A DNA stretch of 64,000 nucleotides from Frankiaceae bacterium (GTDB lineage: Bacteria > Actinomycetota > Actinomycetes > JAFAQI01). Below the pieces are notes generated by a model. That model was given only the letters and a program-made list of their open reading frames with translations. It ran no database searches and had not been told where the DNA came from. The DNA is taken from positions 130-64,129 of the forward strand of contig JAFAZI010000133.1 of the NCBI GenBank assembly GCA_019239875.1, in the 5' to 3' direction. The position numbers and the translations under genes were made by a program. Each line of letters opens with the position of its first letter. The stretch's first letter is position 1. Below are positions 1 to 41,126 of this stretch, piece by piece.

Positions 1-210
1 AGCGAGCCCGGATGCGCCGTACAGGCAGCCATCGCCGAGGGGACGCTGCCGCAGCGGCGGCTCGACAGCTGGCGCAAGATCGCTCGAGAGGCCGAATGGA
101 TCGCGTCCCGCAGCGACGCCAGGCTGCGGCGCGAGCGGGCCGACCGGTGGCGGCAGATTCATCTGGAGGCGCGTCGAAACAACCGGACCCGACCACAGCA
201 GAGGTAGCGT
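1..210 (+). CDS. 3' end of an upstream gene (partial; C-terminal peptide ...[47 protein letters not shown])
   Basis: Frame 1 is open from the window edge to TAG at 208-210. The track ORF 12..485 is in a different frame and runs through thyA, so it is not the real gene. Confidence 0.3.
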
Positions 211-216
211 CGCCTG

Positions 217-1017
217 GTGCCGATCAACACCGTCTACGAGGACCTGCTGCGCCAGGTTCTCGACCACGGCACCCACAAGTCCGACCGCACCGGCACCGGC
301 ACGAAGAGCGTGTTCGGGCACCAGATGCGCTTCGACCTGGCCGACGGATTTCCGCTCATCACGACCAAGCGGGTGCACTTCAAGTCGATTGCCATCGAGC
401 TGCTGTGGTTCCTCCGCGGCGACAGCAACGTGAAGTGGTTGCAGGACAACGGCGTCACCATCTGGGACGAGTGGGCGGCCGCTGACGGAGATCTCGGACC
501 GGTGTACGGCGTGCAGTGGCGATCCTGGCCGACGCCCGACGGTGGACACGTCGACCAGATCGCGACCGTGATGAACCAGCTTCGAACCGATCCGGATTCG
601 CGGCGCATGATCGTCTCGGCGTGGAACGTCAGCGACATCCCGCGGATGGCGTTGCCACCCTGCCACGCGTTCTTCCAGTTCTACGTCGCCGACGGCAGGC
701 TCTCCTGCCAGCTCTACCAGCGCAGCGCCGACCTCTTCCTGGGTGTGCCGTTCAACATCGCGAGCTACGCGCTACTCGTCCACATGGTCGCGCAGCAGGC
801 CGGCCTCGATGTCGGCGAGTTCATCTGGACAGGGGGCGACTGCCACATCTACGACAACCATGTCGAGCAGGTCACCGAGCAGCTGTCCCGCGAGCCGTTC
901 CCGTTCCCGAAGCTCGAGCTGCGTAAGGCCGAGTCGATCTTCGACTACGCATACGAGGATTTCACGGTCGTCGGCTACGAGCACCATCCTGCGATCGCCG
1001 CGCCGGTGGCCGTTTGA
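217..1017 (+). CDS. thyA: thymidylate synthase
   Basis: Full-length ThyA signature (…HQMRFDL…, …[11 protein letters not shown]…). GTG start; overlaps folA by 4 nt. Confidence 0.95.
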
Positions 1018-25618: not shown

Positions 25619-26099
25619 TCGACAGCCGCGCACACGCGAACGATATGCGGCGGGATCCGTGAACGTGGAAGTGATGCTCTTTCCCGCGGGCATCGCGTCC
25701 CGCCGCAGGCGGCAGACTATGAGTTCCGTTAGCCGCTCACGACGACGTCGGCACCGCGCCAAAGAAGTGCCCGACTCGGCACCCGAGCCTTCCGTGAGCC
25801 GCTAGTGAACCCGGAAGCGCCGAGGGATAGATGCCAGCCACAAGGGTCAGCCCGCCAATTCCACTACCGACTGCCAGGCGTGGCCAGTTGGGAACTTCGG
25901 CCCCTCGCAGCTTGCAAGCGGGATTCCCGGAGGCTCCGACGGACATGAGCCTTCAGCGACCGTTCCTGCCACGGCGCCATTGATCAGCCCGAATATCGCC
26001 GACAGCAACACGATCCCCAGGAGCCGCCGGATCACGTCGTGACCGTAACGCTGATCGTCATCGACGCGTTCGGACGCGCGGCGGCGTGTCGGCTTTACT

Positions 26100-26115
26100 T
26101 CGAACACCTGTTCTA
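26100..26115 (+). promoter_or_regulatory. LexA (SOS) box upstream of recA
   Basis: TCGAACACCTGTTCTA, versus the actinobacterial consensus TCGAAC-N4-GTTCGA. It lies 107 bp upstream of the recA ATG. Confidence 0.7.
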
Positions 26116-26221
26116 TAGGTTGTGGAGAACGACATGGCGTCCACAGATCCGGATCGCGCCTCGAAACTGTCCGACCCGGCTCCTAACGTCAGCGGCACCA
26201 GACACCACTCGGAGGGCTCGC

Positions 26222-28610
<2,389 letters not shown>

Positions 28611-28621
<11 letters not shown>

Positions 28622-29141: not shown

Positions 29142-29228
29142 CCTCGGAATCACCAGAGAGTCACAGTCCGTGACGCGGGCGCGCCAGTGCCCACAGTCAC
29201 GTTCCATTTGTGGGGCGGGGGCGCGCGC

Positions 29229-30668
29229 ATGACCGCTCTTGTCGCGGTGTTGGTCGTCGCCGTGATCGCCATCGGCGCGGCCGTCGTCGTCCTGCTCCGG
29301 CGCGTCACTGTCGGCGTCACCCCCGCGCCGCCGCCGCCGACGTCACGGCCCGAAACGGGCGAAGCGCTGTCCGACCTGCAGCGCCGTGAGCAACGACTGC
29401 AGGACCGCGAGGAGCGCCTCGAGCAGGAGGCGAGACGGCTCGCCGAGCGCGACAAGCAGCATGCCGCTGCGGCGGCCGCCCTCGACCGGCAACGAGACGA
29501 GCTTGCGGCAGCCACCGAGCACCGCCAGGCGGAGCTTGAACGCGTCGCCGGGCTGACCGTCGCCGACGCGCGGGCCGAGCTCGTCAAGGTCATCGAGACC
29601 CAGGCCAAACGCGAGGCCGCTCACATCGTCCGCGACATCGAGGCCCAGGCAAAGGAAGAAGGCGAGGAGCGCGCCCGCAAGATCGTCACCCTCGCCATCC
29701 AGCGGGTCGCGAGCGAGCAGACCGCGGAATCGGTCGTGTCGGTTCTCCACCTGCCGAGCGATGAGATGAAAGGCCGCATCATCGGCCGCGAGGGTCGCAA
29801 CATCCGCACCTTCGAGGCTGTCACGGGCGTCAACCTGATCATCGACGACACTCCCGAGGCGGTGCTGCTGTCCTGCTTCGATCCGGTACGGCGCGAGGTC
29901 GGGCGGCTGACCCTCGAGAAGCTCGTCCTCGACGGCCGGATCCACCCCCATCGCATCGAAGAGCAGCACGAGCGCAGCAAGGCCGAGGTCGACGGGCTGT
30001 GTGTCCGCGCCGGCGAGGACGCCTTGGTCGATCTCGGGATCACCGAGATGCACCCCGACCTGATCGCGCTGCTGGGTCAGCTGCGCTACCGCACGTCGTA
30101 CGGCCAGAACGTCCTCAAGCACCTCGTCGAGTCGGCGCACATCGCCGGGATGATGGCCAGTGAGCTACGCCTCGATCGTGACGTCTGCAAGCGTTGCGCC
30201 CTGCTGCACGACGTCGGCAAGGCGCTCACCCACGAGGTCGAGGGCTCCCACGCGATCATCGGTGCCGAGATCGCCCGCAAGTACGGCGAGTCCGAGGACG
30301 TCGTCCACGCGATCGAGGCGCACCACAACGAGGTCGAGGTCCGCACCGTCGAAGCCGTGTTGACCCAGGCGTCCGACGGCATCAGCGGCGGCCGGCCCGG
30401 GGCGCGACGGGAATCACTCGAGCACTACGTGCAGCGACTCGAGCGGATCGAACAGATCGCCGGCGCCCACGACGGCGTCGAACGGGTCTTCGCGATGCAG
30501 GCCGGCCGCGAGATCCGGGTCATGGTCAAGCCCGAGGACATCGACGACATCGGCGCCCAGGTGATCGCCCGTGACGTCGCCAAGCAGATCGAGGAAGAGC
30601 TGACCTACCCCGGCCAGATCCGCATCACCGTCGTCCGTGAGTCCCGAGCCACCGAGGTCGCCAAGTGA
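29229..30668 (+). CDS. rny: ribonuclease Y (N-terminal TM, KH and HD domains)
   Basis: N-terminal TM (MTALVAVLVVAVIAIGAAVVVLL), coiled-coil, KH domain (MKGRIIGREGRNIRTFE) and HD domain (LLHDVGKA). The track ORF starts 14 codons too early. Confidence 0.85.
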   Translation: MTALVAVLVVAVIAIGAAVVVLLRRVTVGVTPAPPPPTSRPETGEALSDLQRREQRLQDREERLEQEARRLAERDKQHAAAAAALDRQRDELAAATEHRQAELERVAGLTVADARAELVKVIETQAKREAAHIVRDIEAQAKEEGEERARKIVTLAIQRVASEQTAESVVSVLHLPSDEMKGRIIGREGRNIRTFEAVTGVNLIIDDTPEAVLLSCFDPVRREVGRLTLEKLVLDGRIHPHRIEEQHERSKAEVDGLCVRAGEDALVDLGITEMHPDLIALLGQLRYRTSYGQNVLKHLVESAHIAGMMASELRLDRDVCKRCALLHDVGKALTHEVEGSHAIIGAEIARKYGESEDVVHAIEAHHNEVEVRTVEAVLTQASDGISGGRPGARRESLEHYVQRLERIEQIAGAHDGVERVFAMQAGREIRVMVKPEDIDDIGAQVIARDVAKQIEEELTYPGQIRITVVRESRATEVAK

Positions 30669-31418: not shown

Positions 31419-32303
31419 ATGGCCAGGTTGCTGCTCGCGCTCGCAGCACTCGCCATCAGCTGTTCCGGCTGCAGCACGATCCCGGCCCGCGCGAGCGACG
31501 GTCGGCTCCAGGTGGTCGCGGGGGAGAACTTCTGGGGTGACCTCGCCCGCCAGGTCGGTGGCGACCGGGTCGACGTCACGAGCCTGATCAACAGCCCGGA
31601 CGCGGACCCACATCTGTTCGAGCCGGGCACCAGCAGTGGTCTCGCGGTCGCCGGTGCCGACGTCGTCATCGTCAACGGCGCGGACTACGACGGCTTCATG
31701 GACCGGTTGATCGCCGCGGCACCATCGACCTCGCGCCAAGTTGTCTCGGTAGCCGATGTCCTGCACGCCGCTGGCAGCGACGTGAACCCTCACTTCTGGT
31801 ACGACGTACCCCGGCTTCCCGACGTCGTGCGGGCGATCGGCGCGGCCATGCAGACGGCTGACCCCGCTCACGCCGCGCACTATCGCCGCGGCGTCGCCGC
31901 GACGATCCGCTCGCTGCATCCCTTGCAGGCGGCCGTCGCGGGCCTGAGCGACGGCTTCAGCGGTACGCCGGTCGCGTACACCGAGCGAGTTCCTGGCTAC
32001 CTGCTGGCCGCTGCGCACCTGCGCGTGATCCCGGTCGCGAGCTTCACCCATGCGATCGAGTCCGGCGTCGACCCATCCTTTGCCGACATCGCCGCCATGC
32101 GCGATCTCATCACCGGGCACCGGATCCGTGCCTTGCTGGTCAACGAGCAGGCCCAGACGACGATCGTCGACCAGCTCGTCTCGCTGGCGCGAAACGATGG
32201 CGTCGCCGTCGTGGGTGTCACCGAGACCCGCCCGGCGAGCACGACGTTCGAGCGCTGGCAGCTCGACCAGATCCGCGCCCTCGACAATGCGCTGGCCCGA
32301 TGA
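31419..32303 (+). CDS. metal ABC transporter substrate-binding lipoprotein (ZnuA/TroA family)
   Basis: Lipoprotein signal (LAISCSGCS) and the cluster-9 metal-binding SBP fold. Confidence 0.75.
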   Translation: MARLLLALAALAISCSGCSTIPARASDGRLQVVAGENFWGDLARQVGGDRVDVTSLINSPDADPHLFEPGTSSGLAVAGADVVIVNGADYDGFMDRLIAAAPSTSRQVVSVADVLHAAGSDVNPHFWYDVPRLPDVVRAIGAAMQTADPAHAAHYRRGVAATIRSLHPLQAAVAGLSDGFSGTPVAYTERVPGYLLAAAHLRVIPVASFTHAIESGVDPSFADIAAMRDLITGHRIRALLVNEQAQTTIVDQLVSLARNDGVAVVGVTETRPASTTFERWQLDQIRALDNALAR

Positions 32304-33103
32304 GCGCGGTCGTCTCGCTCTCGGGAGTTGCCGCGGCGTACCCCGGCCGGACGCTCTGGCGTGACCTCAGCCTCGACATCCAGCCCGGCGAGTTCGTCGC
32401 CGTGCTCGGTGGGAACGGCACCGGCAAGACCACGCTGCTCAAGCTCCTGCTCGGCACGCTGCGTCCGGCGGCCGGCGAGGTCCGGATCCTCGGCGACGCC
32501 GTGCGCCGCGGGGACCGCCGGGTCGGCTACATGCCGCAGCACCGCAACTTCGACCGGGATCTACCCGCGCGGGGCATCGACCTCGTCGCGCTCGGCGCCG
32601 TCGGCCACCGGTTCGGCCTGCGTCGCACAACGGCTGGCACCCGCGATCGAATCCGTCACGCGATTGCTGCCGTCGGCGCAGCCGGGTACGCCTCGGCGCC
32701 GGTCGGGCTGCTGTCAGGTGGTGAGCAGCAGCGACTGCGAGTGGCCGCTGCGATCGTGGACGACCCGGCGCTGATCCTGGCGGACGAGCCGCTCGCCTCG
32801 CTCGACGTCGGCAGCCAGCGCCAGGTCGCAGACGTCCTCGACAGCTGCCGCACCTCGACCGGCGCCGCGGTCGTCGTGGTGACCCACGATGTCAACCCGC
32901 TGCTGCGCCACGTCGACCGCGTCCTGTACCTCGCGGCCGGCCGGTGGGCGGCCGGAACGACCGACGAGGTGTTGACCAGTGCGCGCCTGTCCGCGCTGTA
33001 TGGCTTGCAGGTCGACGTCGTCCGGGTTCGCGATCACGTCGTGATCGTCGGTGCGCCCGACGACCCGCACGGCCACCATCACCACCACGGTGGGGAGGCC
33101 TGA
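32300..33103 (+). CDS. metal ABC transporter ATP-binding protein with C-terminal His-rich tail
   Basis: Walker A (GGNGTGKTT), ABC signature (LSGGEQQR), Walker B (ILADEP), and a C-terminal HGHHHHHGGEA tail. Confidence 0.85.
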   Translation: MSAVVSLSGVAAAYPGRTLWRDLSLDIQPGEFVAVLGGNGTGKTTLLKLLLGTLRPAAGEVRILGDAVRRGDRRVGYMPQHRNFDRDLPARGIDLVALGAVGHRFGLRRTTAGTRDRIRHAIAAVGAAGYASAPVGLLSGGEQQRLRVAAAIVDDPALILADEPLASLDVGSQRQVADVLDSCRTSTGAAVVVVTHDVNPLLRHVDRVLYLAAGRWAAGTTDEVLTSARLSALYGLQVDVVRVRDHVVIVGAPDDPHGHHHHHGGEA

Positions 33104-33939
33104 TGTTTCTCTCCCTGCTGCATCAGCACTTCGTCCACCTCGCCCTGATCGCCGCAGCCGTCGCGGCTGTCGTGTCCGGTGCGCTCTCGCCGCTCGTCAT
33201 CGCCCGCGGTCAGGCGTTCTCCGTGCACGGCATCGCCGAGCTCGGGCTCACCGGCGCCGCGGGTGGACTCCTGGCCGGCATCGATGCCGCGAGCGGAGCA
33301 TTGATCGGTTCGGCGGGCGTCGGCGCCCTGCTGGGAGTCCTCGGGCTGCGGGACCGTGACCGAGACGCCGCGACTGGTGTGGTCCTTGCCTTCGGTCTTG
33401 GTCTGGGTGCGCTGTTCATCCGGCGCCTCCAGAACAACAGCGCGAGTACGACGTTCGGCCTCGCGTTCGGCTCCATCACCTCCGTGTCGACCCACGAGGT
33501 CGAGCTGCTCGCCATCGTTGGCGCGGCTGTGCTTGCCATCCTCGCGATCTGCTGGCGTCCGTTGTGGTTCGCCTCGATCGACCCGGAGGCGGCCGCAGCG
33601 CGGGGTGTTCCGGTGCGCGCCATCGCCGTCGGCTTTCCGATCCTGCTCGGCGCGGCCGTGTCCGAGGTGCTACAGATCACCGGCGCACTGCTGATCTTGA
33701 CCCTGATCGTCACCCCGGCGGCCGCCGCCACGCGCCTGTCGGCCCGGCCCGGCGTCGTCATGGTGTGGTCGATCGGGCTGGCCCTGCTGGCCTCGGTCGG
33801 CGGCGTGTTGGCAACGTTGCAGTGGCCGACACCGCCAGCCTCCTTCTTCGTGGCGACGATCTCGTTCGCCAGCTATGTGATCGCGCGGATCGCAGGCGAT
33901 CGGCTGCGCGCACGGCGCCCAGCACAATTGCACGCATGA
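33103..33939 (+). CDS. metal ABC transporter permease (ABC-3 / ZnuB family)
   Basis: Polytopic membrane protein of the ABC-3 family. ATGA overlap with the ATPase gene; the track ORF is over-extended. Confidence 0.75.
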   Translation: MFLSLLHQHFVHLALIAAAVAAVVSGALSPLVIARGQAFSVHGIAELGLTGAAGGLLAGIDAASGALIGSAGVGALLGVLGLRDRDRDAATGVVLAFGLGLGALFIRRLQNNSASTTFGLAFGSITSVSTHEVELLAIVGAAVLAILAICWRPLWFASIDPEAAAARGVPVRAIAVGFPILLGAAVSEVLQITGALLILTLIVTPAAAATRLSARPGVVMVWSIGLALLASVGGVLATLQWPTPPASFFVATISFASYVIARIAGDRLRARRPAQLHA

Positions 33940-34694
33940 CCGAACGCCGCACGTTGCGGGACGAGGTGTGGCTCGTCTTCGGTCTGTCGCTCGGCGCCTC
34001 GGCAGTGCGAGCCCTGGTGAGCTTCATCGGGTCGGTCACCAGTGGTCGATCGCTCACGTCACAGGTCGCGCTGCTCAACGGGACTCGAGCCCCCGGTCGC
34101 CCGTGGCTCGATCTCGCCCTCCAGCTGGTTGTGCTGGCGCTCGGTGTCGTGCCGGTCTTCCTGGTCGCACACTTCCTGAATCGATCCGGCGAGCGGCTGG
34201 CGACGATCGGAGTCGACCCGTCGGAGCCACGGCGCGACGGCCTGCGCGGCACCGCCTTGGCGGCGGTGGTGGGTGGGGCCGGCCTCGGCCTCTACCTGAT
34301 CGTGCATGCGTCCGGTGCCAACCTCACCGTCGTACCGGAGAACCTTCCCGCCGTCTGGTGGCGGATCCCCGTGCTGCTGCTGTCCGCACTGCAGAACGCG
34401 ACCCTCGAAGAGGTGATCGTTGCCGGCTACCTGCTGCATCGCCTCAAGCAGTTCGGCTGGTCGGACGGCAGAGCCCTCGGACTGTCAGCCCTGATTCGCG
34501 GCAGCTACCACCTCTATCAAGGGGTCGGCGGCTTCGCGGGCAACGCGATCATGGGCCTGATCTTCGGCCGGCTCTACCAGCGATGGGGCCGTGTGATGCC
34601 GCTGCTCATCGCACACACGCTGATGGACAGCGTCGCCTTCGTCGGGTACGCCGAACTCGCCGGGCACGTGGGATGGCTGCCGACTCCGAAGTAG
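33936..34694 (+). CDS. CPBP-family intramembrane metalloprotease (CAAX protease / Abi)
   Basis: EExxxR-type motif (LEEVIVAGYLLHRL) and downstream His motifs in a polytopic protein. Overlaps the permease by 4 nt. Confidence 0.65.
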   Translation: MTERRTLRDEVWLVFGLSLGASAVRALVSFIGSVTSGRSLTSQVALLNGTRAPGRPWLDLALQLVVLALGVVPVFLVAHFLNRSGERLATIGVDPSEPRRDGLRGTALAAVVGGAGLGLYLIVHASGANLTVVPENLPAVWWRIPVLLLSALQNATLEEVIVAGYLLHRLKQFGWSDGRALGLSALIRGSYHLYQGVGGFAGNAIMGLIFGRLYQRWGRVMPLLIAHTLMDSVAFVGYAELAGHVGWLPTPK

Positions 34695-34697
34695 GTC

Positions 34698-35087
34698 TCA
34701 GGTGGTCCACGTGGTGGCGCTCGCCTCGAACGCGTCGCTCAGCTGAACGCGCACGACGCAGAAGACCGTGCCGACCGGGTCGCGCATGACGACCCAGCGC
34801 TTCGGCCTGCCGACAACCGTCGCGCCGAGCGCAGTCAGCCGCGCGACCTCTGCCTCGACGTCATCGGTCTCGATGTCGAGATGAACCCGAGCGGTGTCGT
34901 CGCCGACCGACTGCACCATGAACTGCACCCCGGGCGTCGGTTCGCCGAAGCCGGTGTACTCGGAGTCGTCGACCCCGACCTCCGCGGGTCGATCGAGTGC
35001 CTGTTGCCAGAAGGTGACCTCACGGTCGTAGTCGGCATGCGGCACGTCGATGAGCGCGCTGCACAGCCTGCTGCGGTGACTAGGCAT
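34698..35087 (-). CDS. VOC/glyoxalase-family protein
   Basis: Glyoxalase-like βαβββ fold pattern. Paralogue of the adjacent gene. Confidence 0.6.
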   Translation of the reverse strand: MPSHRSRLCSALIDVPHADYDREVTFWQQALDRPAEVGVDDSEYTGFGEPTPGVQFMVQSVGDDTARVHLDIETDDVEAEVARLTALGATVVGRPKRWVVMRDPVGTVFCVVRVQLSDAFEASATTWTT

Positions 35088-35481
35088 CCGCGTCCGCCGC
35101 CTTCTGCTGGGCGACCTTGAGATCTTGCACGACGCAGAACGTCACACCCGCTGGGTCGCGCATCACGGCCCAGTGATGGCTTCTCGACACCTCCGTCGCG
35201 CCGAGGCTCTTCAGCCGCTCGACGTCCGCGTCGCGATCCTCGCTGTCGAAGTCGATATGAACGCGGTGGGTGTCGTCGCCCGTGGCCTGAACCATGAAGT
35301 AGAGACCGGGCGTCACGTCGTCGTACTGGGCATAGTCCGGGAACTTCTCGCTGTACTCCGGCTGCCTGCCGAGCGCCGCGCTCCAGAACTCGACCGCCCG
35401 CGCATGGTCGCTCTTGGGGACGTCGACGAACGCGCCGGCCAGCCGCATCGGTGCCGTCATGGCCGGAGCCTCGCACGGCAC
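35080..35481 (-). CDS. VOC/glyoxalase-family protein (tandem paralogue)
   Basis: Shared blocks with the downstream copy (…FMVQ…GDDT.RVH.D…, …ERL..LGAT…, …WAVMRDP.G..FCVV…). Confidence 0.6.
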   Translation of the reverse strand: MPCEAPAMTAPMRLAGAFVDVPKSDHARAVEFWSAALGRQPEYSEKFPDYAQYDDVTPGLYFMVQATGDDTHRVHIDFDSEDRDADVERLKSLGATEVSRSHHWAVMRDPAGVTFCVVQDLKVAQQKAADADA

Positions 35482-35546
35482 CGCCGCGAATTCATCGGTG
35501 CAGTTGCGATCGTGACGGACCTGTTGCCGTCAGGGCCGACAGATCT

Positions 35547-36551
35547 TCAGTGAATGGTCACCGAGAAGTAGTTCGCGAACGGCGCATTCCTGACCCGGAG
35601 CTTGCCGAACGCACTCTCGTGGATCGTGATGGCTCCCTTCCATGACGTGTCGTACTCCCGGCCCCGCTCGGTCCCCGTCTTGCACGCCTGCGAGTAGGGA
35701 CGCTTGGTGCTGCTCACGAGCAGGGCTTTGCCGGTCGCGATGCTTCCTGCCGCCGTCCGGATCCGAAGCGCTGGATGACCGTGCTTGTTGATCGCCTTCG
35801 GCAGCGGCGCCTTCGTTTTCGCGTCGTCGACGCGGAACGCGCCGTCCGGGGCGGCGAGGCGGACCAGCCGGTTTGCCTCGATCGTGCTCTTCGGCCTCGG
35901 GCGCTTCGGCCCGGTCAGAGTGCTGCCCACCAGGCTGACGTGGTTGTGGTAGGTGCTCCACGACGTGCCGGCCTGGCACGGCACCTGACGTGCGCAAGCC
36001 TCCTCGGCGTCCGGACCGTGCTCGCCGACGAGAGTTCCGTGCGTCATCCGGATGTGGCGCTTGGCGACCCTGCCCCAGTGCTTGTTGTGCGTCTTGAACG
36101 CAACGGTGCCCTTGGTGGTCATCGTCGCCGTCTGCGTGTAGCTGCCCGGGCCACATGTGTGTTTGGTGAACGAGGTGTTCGGATGCGTCCTCAGCCGGAT
36201 CTTGCCGTACGGCTTGGCCTGCTTGCCGGTTCGCACCCGGTGGTTCGTGAACGACCCACCGTGAACCGAGAAGGTCCACGAGTGCGACTCCGACCGGTCC
36301 TTCGTCATCAGCTCGACGGTCACGGCGCCCGGACTGCCGGCGTCTGACGTGCCGTCGGTGCTGAACCGCTTCGCAGTCACGAACATGATGAGGTGCTGGC
36401 CGGTTGTCGTCACGACCACGTGGCCGCCGCTGTCATACAAGGTCAGCGACTCCGGGACCGCGGCGAATGCCGCGGGGCTCGCCGCGACGGCCGCGCCTGC
36501 AACGACGGCGCTGCACGCCAGCGCGGCACCGGACCGAGTCAATCGGGACAT
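35547..36551 (-). CDS. secreted hypothetical protein, paralogue family member 1 (4 conserved Cys)
   Basis: Signal peptide MSRLTRSGAALACSAVVAGAAVAASPAAFA. Conserved blocks shared with the upstream neighbour (ESHSWTF, PYG, HGPDAEEAC). Confidence 0.65.
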   Translation of the reverse strand: MSRLTRSGAALACSAVVAGAAVAASPAAFAAVPESLTLYDSGGHVVVTTTGQHLIMFVTAKRFSTDGTSDAGSPGAVTVELMTKDRSESHSWTFSVHGGSFTNHRVRTGKQAKPYGKIRLRTHPNTSFTKHTCGPGSYTQTATMTTKGTVAFKTHNKHWGRVAKRHIRMTHGTLVGEHGPDAEEACARQVPCQAGTSWSTYHNHVSLVGSTLTGPKRPRPKSTIEANRLVRLAAPDGAFRVDDAKTKAPLPKAINKHGHPALRIRTAAGSIATGKALLVSSTKRPYSQACKTGTERGREYDTSWKGAITIHESAFGKLRVRNAPFANYFSVTIH

Positions 36552-36564
36552 GTTCCCTCTCCTG

Positions 36565-37602
36565 TCATGCGACGTGGTACTTCTCGAATGTCGCGCCGGC
36601 CTTCGCAAGTGAGATGGGACCGAAGATCTCTTCGGCGAACGTCAGCGGCTGGTCGGCGGCGACGTACTTCGCGGTCCACAGTTTGCCTTTCTCCTGGCCG
36701 CCGGCGCACCCCGTCGCCCACGGGCTGTGTGCGGTCGCGGTGAGGGTGCCACCGCCCGCAACTGCGGGTTGCGCGGCGTCGGCGACGACGGAGAGCGTCT
36801 TGGTGCCGTTCAGCTTCGTGAGCCTCTGATGGCTGGCGCCCGCGATCACTTCGTCGAGGCGAAAGCCACCGACCGGCTTCAACAGCTCGGTGTAACGGTC
36901 ACCACGGATGGTCCCGATCGGATGGTCACCCTGCGCGCCGACCAGGTCGCCCGAGAGCGTGATGTCGCCTTTCGATGCCAGCCAGCTGATGCCGTGCAGG
37001 CACACCGGAAATCCGGTGCATGCCTCCTCGTTGTCGGGGCCGTGCCCGCCGTACAGCTTGCCCTTGAGGGTGATGTTCCTCAGCTTCACGGTGCCCCAGG
37101 AGCTCGGCCCGGCCGAGTGCGTCCTCAGCTTGACCGAGCCCTTCAGCGTCACTTTGTGCGTCACGGAGAAGTCGCCTGCGCCGCAGTCGTGCTTCACGCC
37201 CTTGTGAGCCGCCGAGATCGACAGATCCACGGACCCGTACGGCGCCACCTGGTGACCGGTTTTGAGCTGACCGTCAGCGTTGCTGGCGTTACGGAACGAG
37301 TCCTTGGCGAGATCGAAGGTCCACGCATGTGACTCGGTGCCATTGAGGTTGGTCAACGTCGCGGTCAGCTTGCTCGCCGCGTGTGCGTCGGGTTTCGAAG
37401 CACGAGAGTGTCGCTCCGCTCCGAGCGTCAGGATGAGGTCCTTGCCGGTGGTCGATCGCACCGGTTGCGGTGCAGTGTCCAGTCGAGTGCTGCTCTCCGG
37501 CAGCTGACCGGCGACGGCAGCGGGCGTGGTGATCAGCAACCCGCTGCCCGCGAGGATTCCGGCCGTCACCGACGCAAGCACCGTGCGAAGCGATCGAGGC
37601 AC
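36565..37602 (-). CDS. secreted hypothetical protein, paralogue family member 2
   Basis: GTG start giving [32 protein letters not shown]. Shares the ESHAWTF, PYG and HGPDNEEAC blocks with the downstream gene. Confidence 0.6.
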
Positions 37603-37719
37603 TGCGTCTCCAACCCGTTTGACGAGGCCTATTTGTCTCACGCCGTGCCGACCGATGCGAGCGTTGGCGCGCGGGTCGCGGCAATTGGCGCTGCCTCGTT
37701 TCGCCGTACCCTGGCAGCC

Positions 37720-39147
37720 GTGGAGCGGCGGACGTATGAGGTGCGCACCTTCGGCTGCCAGATGAACGTGCACGACTCCGAACGGATCGCGGGACTGCTC
37801 GAAGCCTCTGGTTATGTCGCAGCGGCGGACGGCACCACTGCGGATGTCGTCGTGTTCAACACCTGCGCGGTGCGGGAGAACGCCGACAACCGCCTCTACG
37901 GCAACCTCGGCTACCTGGTTCGGACCAAGGCGCAGCACCCCGGCATGCAGATCGCGGTTGGCGGCTGCCTCGCGCAGAAGGACCAGCGCACGATCGTCGA
38001 ACGGGCGCCGTGGGTCGATGTGGTGTTCGGCACGCACAACATCGGATCGCTGCCCGTCCTGCTCGAACGGGCTCGGGTCGAGCAGGAGGCCCAGGTCGAG
38101 CTGCTCGAGGCGCTCGAGACATTTCCCTCGACCCTGCCGACCCGACGGGAGTCGGCGTACCGGGCCTGGGTGTCGATCAGCGTCGGGTGCAACAACACCT
38201 GCACGTTTTGCATCGTCCCCTCGCTGCGGGGCCGGGAGAAGGACCGGCGGCCGGGGGAGGTGCTGGCCGAGGTGGCGGCGCTGGTCGACGACGGCGTGCT
38301 CGAGGTGACGTTGCTCGGGCAGAACGTCAATTCCTACGGCGTGGAGTTCGGCGACCGCGAGGCGTTCGGGAAGCTGTTGCGGGCCTGCGGTGAGATCGAC
38401 GGCCTCGAGCGGGTCCGCTTCACGTCACCGCACCCTCGCGACTTCACGGACGACGTCATCACGGCGATGGCCCAGACGGCCAACGTGATGCCCAGTCTGC
38501 ACATGCCGCTGCAGTCCGGCAGCGATCGTGTGCTTGCGGCGATGCGACGCTCTTACCGCGCCGAGAAATACCTCGGCATCATCGATCGCGTCCGCGAGGC
38601 GATGCCCGACGCGGCGATCACCACTGACATCATCGTCGGGTTCCCCGGCGAGACCGAGGCCGACTTCGCGCAGACCCTCGAGGTGGTTGAACGCGCGCGA
38701 TTCGCCAGTGCGTTCACCTTCCAGTATTCGCCGCGTCCCGGCACGCCGGCGGCGTCGATGCCCGACCAGGTGCCGCCGGAGGTCGTCGCCGAGCGCTATC
38801 AGCGGCTCGTCGCCGCCGTCGAGAGGTCGGCGTGGGCAGGCAATCAGGCCTGTCTCGGTACGACGGTCGAGGTCCTCGTCGCGGAGGGCGAGGGGCGCAA
38901 GGACGATGCGACGGCGCGCTTGTCCGGTCGGGCGAGGGACAACCGCCTCGTTCACGTCGCCGCGTGCGATGCCCGGCCAGGTGACGTCGTGACGGCGGTG
39001 GTCACGTATGCGGCGCCGCACCACCTCGTCGCGGACGAGGTGACCGGGGTACGACGTACTCGTGGCGGCGACGCATGGCAGTCGCGGCGTGACGCCCCTA
39101 CGGAGCCATCGGGGGTGCTCCTCGGCATTCCCACCGTCCGGGCCTGA
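37720..39147 (+). CDS. miaB: tRNA-2-methylthio-N6-dimethylallyladenosine synthase MiaB
   Basis: [19 protein letters not shown]-terminus, radical [13 protein letters not shown], and TRAM domain. The start is uncertain (GTG 37720 or GTG 37645); the track ORF start at 37381 is too far upstream. Confidence 0.85.
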
Positions 39148-40268: not shown

Positions 40269-41126
40269 ATGTCGAGCCTCGACCTCGACCTCGTACCGGC
40301 ACTCGCCCGTGCGGTCGAAGAGGACGCCCTGGTTGTTCACTATCAGCCTGAGGTCGATCTCGCCAGCGGCGCCGTCGTCGGCATGGAGGCACTGCTGCGC
40401 TGGCAACACCCCAAGCGCGGCCTGCTCTGGCCGGTCGACTTCCTCGCCATCGCCGACCGGGCCGGCCTGCTTCCGACGCTCGGCTGGGAGGTGCTCCGTC
40501 GCGGCGCCAAGGAACTGGCGTCGTGGCGTTCGTTGCCGCCGATCGAGGACACGCCGCGCCAGCTCTGGGTGAACGTCTCCGCGTCGCAGCTGCTCCAGGC
40601 CGATTTCGTCGACCGGATCGCCGCGCTGATCACCGAGCACGAGCTCGCGCCGAACACCCTCGGTCTCGAGGTGACGGAGGAGACGCTGGCGACCGGCAGC
40701 AAGCACGCCCCCCAGCTGCTGCGGGAGCTGCGTGAAGTGGGTGTCGCGCTCGCCATCGACGACTTCGGCAGCTGGTACTCCGCGCTCGGCACACTCGGCG
40801 AGCTGCCGATCGATGCGGTCAAACTCGACCAGCCGTTCGTCCGAGGGGTGGGCTCCGACCTCGAGAACGACTCCATCGTCTCCTCCGTGATCGCGCTGGC
40901 CCATGCCCACGGTGTCCGCGTGGTCGCGGAGGGCGTCGAGAGCTGGAGCGAGGGCGCCCGGCTCTGCGAGCTCGGCTGCGACCGGGCCTTGGGCTACCTG
41001 TTCAGCGGCCCGCAGATCGCCGAGCACGCGCGGCTGATGATGGCGCACGGCGCCGGCTGGAGCGCGCCCCGCCAGCGCAAGCCGGCCGACGACCAGCAGC
41101 CTGCGCGCCTACCCTTGGAAGGGTGA
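40269..41126 (+). CDS. standalone EAL-domain protein (c-di-GMP phosphodiesterase-like)
   Basis: EAL motif (GMEALLRW), DDFG, KLDQPFV, EGVES and QGYLFSGP catalytic-site blocks are present. A long 5' leader spans 40059-40268. The stop overlaps the dapF start. Confidence 0.8.
   Translation: MSSLDLDLVPALARAVEEDALVVHYQPEVDLASGAVVGMEALLRWQHPKRGLLWPVDFLAIADRAGLLPTLGWEVLRRGAKELASWRSLPPIEDTPRQLWVNVSASQLLQADFVDRIAALITEHELAPNTLGLEVTEETLATGSKHAPQLLRELREVGVALAIDDFGSWYSALGTLGELPIDAVKLDQPFVRGVGSDLENDSIVSSVIALAHAHGVRVVAEGVESWSEGARLCELGCDRALGYLFSGPQIAEHARLMMAHGAGWSAPRQRKPADDQQPARLPLEG

Follow-up and report, generated by a model that had tools for sequence, protein, structure and literature searches.

What are the products of the tandem gene pair that faces miaB in this stretch of Frankiaceae bacterium DNA, and what might they do outside the cytoplasm? 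The stretch analysed here (64,000 nucleotides of contig JAFAZI010000133.1, assembly GCA_019239875.1, hereafter the window) carries two adjacent genes, A and B, which the original prediction, made from the nucleotide letters alone, had described as recently duplicated, lineage-specific paralogues with signal peptides, four cysteines and no recognised fold. Our analysis indicates instead that the two copies diverged long ago and that they encode a protein, predicted to be exported and disulfide-stabilised, from a family of uncultured Mycobacteriales (as GTDB defines the group, with Frankiaceae included) that has yet to be curated. We consider it very probable that this is a new, uncurated family of exported, disulfide-bonded proteins with two predicted beta domains. 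At the level of the fold, the predicted model makes them most likely an exported variant, stapled by disulfides, of a scaffold that is known but rarely seen. The features of the locus are as follows.

Gene A, 35547-36551, minus strand: 334 aa, ATG start with a GGAGAGGGA ribosome-binding site upstream; diverged tandem paralogue, very basic, with an A-type copy also in contig L003.
Gene B, 36565-37602, minus strand: 345 aa, GTG start with GGAG 5 nt upstream; predicted exported two-beta-domain, four-cysteine protein and positional orthologue of the single-copy miaB-divergent gene.
Spacer between the B stop and the A start, 36552-36564, minus strand: 13 nt, sequence gcaTGAcaggagagggaacATG; contains the ribosome-binding site of A.
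Divergent intergenic region between B and miaB, 37603-37719, no strand: 117 bp, presumably holding both promoters.

Both are real genes. Their GC content at third codon positions is 0.87 for A and 0.82 for B, compared with 0.87 for miaB and 0.56-0.62 for overlapping shadow open reading frames (ORFs). The product of A is sequence-identical to a hypothetical protein, JO246_14270 [Frankiaceae bacterium], from an NCBI metagenome-assembled genome (MAG), and that of B to P0003, a Joint Genome Institute protein whose public gene call uses the same start. The two ORFs lie head to tail with B upstream of A, and the paralogy predicted for them was borne out by formal alignment, in which BLASTP matched A to B collinearly over the whole length (32% identity, 335 columns, E 3e-46); B matches the family hidden Markov model (HMM) at E 1.7e-80. 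The length first given for B was correct, and that of 335 aa for A had included the stop codon. The sequence blocks described as common to the two proteins are present with small deviations, one reading CG.G rather than C.G.G and B having VC, not PC, before the second linker cysteine. The position of the A ribosome-binding site within the 13-nt spacer implies co-transcription, and the two genes are probably co-translated. Across a 117-bp gap the pair diverges from miaB, as had been stated, and the miaB start is most likely the GTG at 37720, judging by alignment with MiaB of L001 and L004. A consensus promoter and terminator scan of 34600-37900 found no sigma-70 site and no terminator, in this spacer or in the rest of that interval, and an Rfam search of the whole window returned no match.

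Export is predicted from the N termini, where each protein has a basic n-region, a hydrophobic h-region and an AxA-type site.

Signal peptide of A, 36462-36551, minus strand: approximately residues 1-30, MSRLTRSGAALACSAVVAGAAVAASPAAFA and then residue A; from sequence and hydropathy.
Signal peptide of B, 37504-37602, minus strand: approximately residues 1-33 and then residue Q; from sequence and a hydropathy window.

In A, an MSRLTR n-region is followed by the h-region GAALACSAVVAGAAVAA and a site between AFA and A after residue 30. In B, an MPRSLR n-region precedes an 18-residue stretch and a site between AVA and G or, alternatively, between VAG and Q. Kyte-Doolittle maxima over 12 residues are about 2.0 in both. 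These calls were made by reading the sequence and by a crude test for n-region, h-region and AxA site, and the cleavage sites are approximate; the same test was passed by 120 of the 142 family members in the alignment on which our conservation figures are based (alignment A2, in A numbering). Directly after the predicted cleavage site stands a conserved P-E-S/T-L-T block, which corresponds to the opening beta strand in the structural model of A, and residues 1-21 of that model have a predicted local distance difference test score (pLDDT) below 50. Anchoring as a lipoprotein was considered and rejected. Gene B encodes no N-terminal cysteine, and Cys13 of A, found within ALAC after an h-region of six residues, is too near the N terminus and is absent from relatives; neither protein thus has a usable lipobox, and a lipobox-like match occurs in only 3 of the 142 members. 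Export by the twin-arginine (Tat) route was likewise rejected because an RR motif is absent from both proteins, although 25 of the 142 members do show an RRx## pattern. A and B are predicted to be Sec-type exported proteins processed by signal peptidase I (SPase I), in line with the signal peptides originally proposed for both. The mature proteins are basic, with an isoelectric point (pI) of 10.3 for A and 8.9 for B; the family median is 9.66, and 104 of 142 members exceed 9.

To which family do these proteins belong? At the sequence level it is new and uncurated, and it has no characterised member, which agrees with the initial statement that the family could not be named. Neither A nor B matched Pfam at E<=1, and searches of both against NCBIfam, PHROGs and PADLOC gave no match, a colicin-Z C-terminal hit at E 0.23 being noise. 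In a PDB sequence-profile search, the sole matches were signal-peptide-like and had E>=0.12, and tblastn against plasmids found nothing. Among the 142 members, Pfam produced just four single-member matches at E ~0.008, which we judged to be noise. A word-indexed homologue search retrieved only 8 close relatives, far fewer than the 313 that exhaustive profile searching drew from 1.84 billion cluster representatives (50% identity) at E<=1e-3. Of these, 246 reach E<=1e-10, and almost all are 320-390 aa long and match end to end. Locus scans with narrower alignments yielded 1 genome locus and 4 metagenome loci. Among the 30 clusters looked up and the 8 close relatives, every named member is a 'hypothetical protein' from a MAG labelled Frankiaceae or Mycobacteriales, and the rest are metagenomic.

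The family averages only about 19% identity per column, but a small set of positions is nearly fixed, and three groups of codons in A mark them.

ExHxWxF signature (E88, H90, W92, F94), 36270-36290, minus strand: a single predicted beta strand; the B equivalent is ESHAWTF.
R240-x-D242, 35826-35834, minus strand: near-invariant polar pair in the C-terminal domain, on strand 239-247 of the model.
H178-G-P-D-A-E-E-A-C186 to C192, 35976-36020, minus strand: subfamily motif on the linker helix, then a cysteine-closed loop.

E88, H90 and W92 are each conserved in 98% of the 142 members and F94 in 92%, while R240 is found in 98% and D242 in 99%; G116, L120, G148, W159, G160 and G274 are also near-invariant. 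The four cysteines reported earlier hold up well beyond the pair. C133, C186, C192 and C290 do not vary among the 8 close relatives. In the wider alignment, conservation is complete for C133 and C290 and 99% for C186 and C192; 141 of 142 members have all four, and 137 have exactly four cysteines beyond residue 35. The HGPD[AN]EEAC block is invariant in the 8 close relatives and confined to the ~11 closest sequences rather than shared by the wider family. The claim of lineage specificity is thus only partly supported: this motif is specific to the subfamily, whereas the family spans at least 313 clusters at 50% identity, from metagenomes and Mycobacteriales MAGs, and at least four genomic contexts.

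The original prediction did not recognise a fold, and structure prediction now supplies a confident two-beta-domain model. With an 8-sequence alignment, AlphaFold2 reached a pLDDT of only 37, and that model was discarded; with the 142-sequence alignment, the model of A had a mean pLDDT of 91.7 and a predicted template modelling score (pTM) of 0.87. After a disordered signal peptide, it consists of ~10 strands (34-178), a helix at 182-185 formed by the EEAC motif, a loop with C186 and C192, and 10 further strands (194-333), the ExHxWxF strand being residues 88-96. Foldseek against the PDB placed AttH-like two-barrel proteins of similar length in all of the top 20 positions (aligned end to end over 350-390 columns, probability 0.91-1.0). 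The best match was NE1406, deposited as 'putative AttH' (2ICH; E 5.7e-7, probability 1.0), followed by the fungal decalin Diels-Alderases Phm7, Fsa2, CghA and 7DMO/7DMN (E 1e-5 to 1e-3) and by 25-phosphosteroid lyase (E 5e-5 to 5e-4, probability 0.99-1.0). Generic barrels, GFP-like or from the outer membrane, begin at E>=5e-3, and the BFVD viral fold library gave only background (best E 1.7e-2). Published accounts of the AttH-like fold describe two flattened barrels that arose from a duplicated domain and are linked by a helix, with the ligand or active site where they meet (PMC2954199, PMC8154222). The model of the window family agrees with these accounts in its predicted order of parts, putative barrel, one helix, putative barrel. 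With respect to the calycin Trp/Arg signature, the C-terminal domain has W198 (85% conserved) on its first strand, directly after helix 182-185, and comparison of the alignment with the model strands showed no conserved basic residue on the last one.

The model also agrees with a domain duplication within the protein, as in NE1406 and Fsa2. In the register of a weak half-against-half alignment, V79 pairs with V230, L81 with L232, G116 with G274, L120 with L278 and C133 with C290; in each half of the model the conserved cysteine ends a strand and a long hairpin follows, and E88/H90 and R240/D242 fall on equivalent strands, offset by one residue. The loop carrying C186 and C192 has been lost as a unit in P0099, which keeps C133 and C290, and the spacing from C186 to C192 differs between members, from 4 residues up to 15. 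Because of this joint loss and variable spacing, the most parsimonious arrangement that we infer is a C186-C192 disulfide closing the linker loop and a C133-C290 disulfide acting as a staple between the domains.

What could such a protein do? Our tentative reading, whose chances as a whole package we would put a little short of even, is that A and B bind or process a hydrophobic envelope molecule outside the cytoplasm using an AttH-like two-barrel fold. Following Sec export and SPase I cleavage, A and B would fold oxidatively, with the linker-loop disulfide C186-C192 and the inter-domain disulfide C133-C290. The barrels of the AttH-like fold would be filled, leaving the cleft between them as the working site, lined by E88, H90, W92 and F94 from the N-terminal domain and R240 and D242 from the C-terminal domain, with W159 and W198 also predicted to contribute. 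In the window subfamily, the acidic bridging helix H-G-P-D-x-E-E-A-C may add to the cleft. Positive charge would retain the protein at the anionic surface of the membrane or wall, where it might bind, shuttle or modify a lipid, an isoprenoid or a ceramide-like compound, and the two copies could differ in specificity or form a heterodimer. The ligand could in principle be a glycan, since all-beta exported proteins with several invariant Trp/Phe and acidic residues would also suit secreted wall-glycan enzymes or binders, such as carbohydrate-binding modules (CBMs) or glycoside-hydrolase accessory proteins. We regard this as very improbable, however, as the Foldseek matches include no CBM or glycoside-hydrolase structure, none of the 142 members matches a Pfam carbohydrate-binding family, and no glycan-related neighbours were seen in the loci examined.

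One of the genomic neighbourhoods offers a soft hint in the direction of lipids. Family genes were found in at least four contexts: divergent from miaB, as in the window clade; after rsfS and a His_Phos_1 gene (L008, L013, L014); after dxs (L006, L015); and in a tightly spaced series (L009, L011, L016, L019) of an extracytoplasmic function (ECF) sigma factor, a ~380-aa protein, a neutral ceramidase, a metallo-beta-lactamase (MBL)-fold protein, one family member or two in a row, and a vicinal oxygen chelate (VOC)/glyoxalase protein, with MMPL and MarR genes beyond. The family members in this last series are distant ones, only 32-49% identical among themselves. It occupies 3260-9669 in L009, 2-4714 in L011, 1726-8149 in L016 and 1708-7537 in L019, where the family gene is doubled, and its ~380-aa protein is a Pro/Thr-rich membrane protein, possibly an anti-sigma factor. 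As the sole operon-like context, the set of ceramidase, MBL-fold protein, family member and VOC protein hints at a role in lipid metabolism, which would suit the fold. Functional coupling to miaB/miaA (isopentenyl tRNA) or dxs was considered and rejected because the contexts differ among clades and look like inherited synteny.

Several observations weigh against binding or processing of an envelope lipid in an AttH-like cleft. The Foldseek template-modelling (TM) scores are 0.19-0.27 with root-mean-square deviations of 16-18 A, so the AttH-like match extends at most to the architecture, and part of it could stem from the general resemblance of beta meanders. Sequence profiles gave no link to PF07143, PF09410, PF17186 or any PDB chain: those three families and PF08622 had no match among the 142 members at E<=0.01, and 2ICH and the Diels-Alderases were not retrieved by PDB sequence-profile search at E<=10. 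The HMM-HMM alignment of the N-terminal half with the C-terminal half (E 0.036, probability 1.4%) is not significant alone. A cleft with E88, H90, R240 and D242 buried in it is a proposal drawn from the placement of 98-99% conserved polar and aromatic residues on strands 88-96 and 239-247, and the disulfide geometry is likewise putative. The ceramidase, MBL-fold and VOC partners lack signal peptides, the family member alone having one, and the variation of neighbourhoods by clade (miaB, rsfS and His_Phos_1, dxs, ceramidase operon) leaves no firm functional partner.

A further consideration is the rate at which the family evolves, for which we compared the window with L001, L004 and L005.

MiaB: 82-86% identity.
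MiaA: 73-78% identity.
EAL protein: 88-89% identity.
B-type family gene: 38-48% identity.

The family gene has diverged far more quickly than the genes around it. Fast evolution is common for exposed exported proteins and counts in favour of the lipid-handling reading too, but A and B might alternatively be non-catalytic, fast-diversifying surface, wall or antigen-like proteins under selection by phages, competitors or the environment, their AttH likeness being no more than a generic beta-meander. Such an account would fit this rate relative to syntenic neighbours, the many paralogues per genome and repeated tandem duplication, the high pI, the low TM-scores to AttH-like structures, and the want of any operon partner conserved across clades. 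We nevertheless think it unlikely, if the most serious of the alternatives. Conservation of E88, H90, R240 and D242 at 98-99% in a family with so little identity per column is more what one would expect of a binding or catalytic site than of a scaffold, and the top 20 structural matches all belong to one fold family.

Comparison of loci also bears on how the pair arose. Contig L003 has the same B-then-A order, its B-type protein being 68% identical to B and its A-type protein 57% identical to A. In neighbor-joining trees, the A-type proteins (A, P0002, P0011) fall outside a clade formed by B and the single-copy genes of L001, L002, L004 and L005. Those single-copy genes are likewise divergent from miaB, which is followed by miaA, the EAL protein gene, dapF and hflX, and because they share the miaB-divergent position, B is their positional orthologue, with A as the additional copy. 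In L002, L004 and L005 the single copy is followed by a YjbR-like gene, as is the B-A pair in L003, from which it follows that A was inserted by tandem duplication and that the YjbR segment was later lost in the window. With copies only 30-32% identical, the same pair in L003 and a separate A-type clade, the sequences indicate that the duplication is old, not recent as first proposed. Diverged tandem pairs of separate origin are found in other clades (L006/L007, L018, L019), with partners 32-39% identical, and L016 and L019 have further paralogues close by. These further paralogues stand a few genes past the ceramidase operon (L016 11332-12501, minus strand; L019 10354-11646, minus strand), are 31-34% identical to the operon copy and 41% identical to each other, and each adjoins a gene for a small membrane protein of ~120 aa.

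The recurrence of pairs raises the question of whether A and B act together. Tandem partners that are 30-39% identical occur in the window, L003, L006/L007, L018 and L019, and in the window the genes are 13 nt apart, probably co-translated, and differ in charge (A pI 10.3, B pI 8.9), as might be expected if A and B formed an obligate heterodimer, a two-component exported module that would be compatible with lipid binding or processing in the cleft. However, most close relatives are single-copy at this locus (L001, L002, L004, L005), so that a B-type protein works without an A partner, and the pairs of different clades are separate duplications. We consider an obligate heterodimer improbable.

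The surroundings of the pair add the following. Directly downstream of A are two Glyoxalase_6 (VOC) paralogues (34698-35087 and 35080-35481, both minus strand), which are 49.5% identical and overlap by 8 nt. A functional link to them was down-weighted because the Glyoxalase_6 pair lies ~6 kb away from the family gene in L005 and a YjbR-like gene follows instead in L002-L005. Given that distance in L005, the window has lost YjbR, an MsrPQ-like pair, an ABC transporter and a methyltransferase, and the proximity of the Glyoxalase_6 genes to A looks like inherited synteny plus deletion rather than functional coupling. Next to them, 31419-34694 encodes a ZnuA/ZnuC/ZnuB-type metal ABC importer and then an Rce1-like CPBP intramembrane protease, the same block being present at the end of L005. 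At lower coordinates, rny (29187-30668) lies downstream of a recA gene (26039-28621, plus strand) that is interrupted by an intein with a LAGLIDADG homing-endonuclease domain, with RecA, Intein_splicing, LAGLIDADG_3 and RecA_C in one 860-aa ORF. On the other side of the pair, a stand-alone EAL-domain protein (40269-41126, plus strand) is encoded between miaA and dapF and is unusually well conserved, its 88-89% identity to the L001 and L005 counterparts exceeding that of MiaA (73-78%). L001, which is syntenic with the window, has at 1-573 (minus strand) a gene for an 1873-aa ribonucleotide reductase large subunit with apparently two inteins (LAGLIDADG_3 x2, PT-HINT, Intein_splicing), adjoining nrdR and lexA. 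Immediately downstream of the single-copy family members in L001 (11157-13085, plus strand, >643 aa) and L008 (2038-3660, plus strand, 540 aa) are large ORFs whose products have no Pfam match.

The locus is not a regulatory or mechanistic surprise, and the adjacency to miaB looks like inherited synteny, not a functional link. Its sharp signature (ExHxWxF, RxD and four cysteines) and confident model make the family a clean candidate for a new Pfam or domain of unknown function (DUF) entry. If the fold and the extracytoplasmic location are true, the two-beta-barrel scaffold would be extended to disulfide-stabilised exported envelope proteins of actinobacteria, and the family would offer a way into the lipid biology of soil lineages, from which no cultured representative was present among the ~38 clusters sampled. 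The boldest combination, a first extracytoplasmic, disulfide-stapled branch of the AttH/Diels-Alderase fold that evolves fast, is rich in paralogues, processes or shuttles envelope lipids such as the ceramide-like or isoprenoid ones at which the ceramidase operon of distant members hints, has heterodimeric tandem copies and is confined to uncultured soil Mycobacteriales, has in our judgment only a small chance of being right in full.

Among known systems, the two-beta-barrel scaffold has so far been seen in a structural-genomics orphan, carotenoid and glycerol dialkyl glycerol tetraether (GDGT) hydratases, fungal pericyclases and a steroid lyase. Exported envelope lipoproteins of the LppX/LprG type, also from Mycobacteriales, are paralogous and bind hydrophobic lipids, with a lipobox and an alpha/beta fold. 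They are analogous to A and B by proposed role only and are not homologous to them, A and B being predicted as all-beta and having no lipobox. The 25-phosphosteroid lyase of Sterolibacterium denitrificans (9FZN/9G4C), which acts on an isoprenoid steroid side chain, is similar in length to members of the window family, with 6-7% identity and a TM-score of ~0.25, and comes from another group of organisms and another genomic context. With the fungal Diels-Alderases (Fsa2, Phm7, CghA and MycB-type; 7E5T/7E5U/6KAW/7DMO), the model shares a single short helix between beta domains. In the Fsa2-type enzymes the barrels are joined by one alpha-helix, are flattened and filled, and leave the active site in the cleft between them (PMC8154222). 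These enzymes differ from the window family, however, in being cytosolic, encoded in polyketide synthase-nonribosomal peptide synthetase (PKS-NRPS) clusters and without a signal peptide or conserved disulfides; identities are 7-12% and TM-scores 0.19-0.23, and the window has no PKS-NRPS cluster. Relative to NE1406 (2ICH; PF09410/PF07143 clan, CrtC-type hydratases), the window family has an N-terminal domain of ~10 strands rather than 13, a TM-score of 0.27 and no profile similarity, and it brings four invariant cysteines, which would form two disulfides, and its own ExHxWxF and RxD signatures. Even so, both are single chains of ~320-350 aa with two all-beta domains. NE1406 was proposed to bind a lipid or isoprenoid partly at its interdomain interface and to associate with the membrane through a basic patch (PMC2954199), and the window family is likewise basic.

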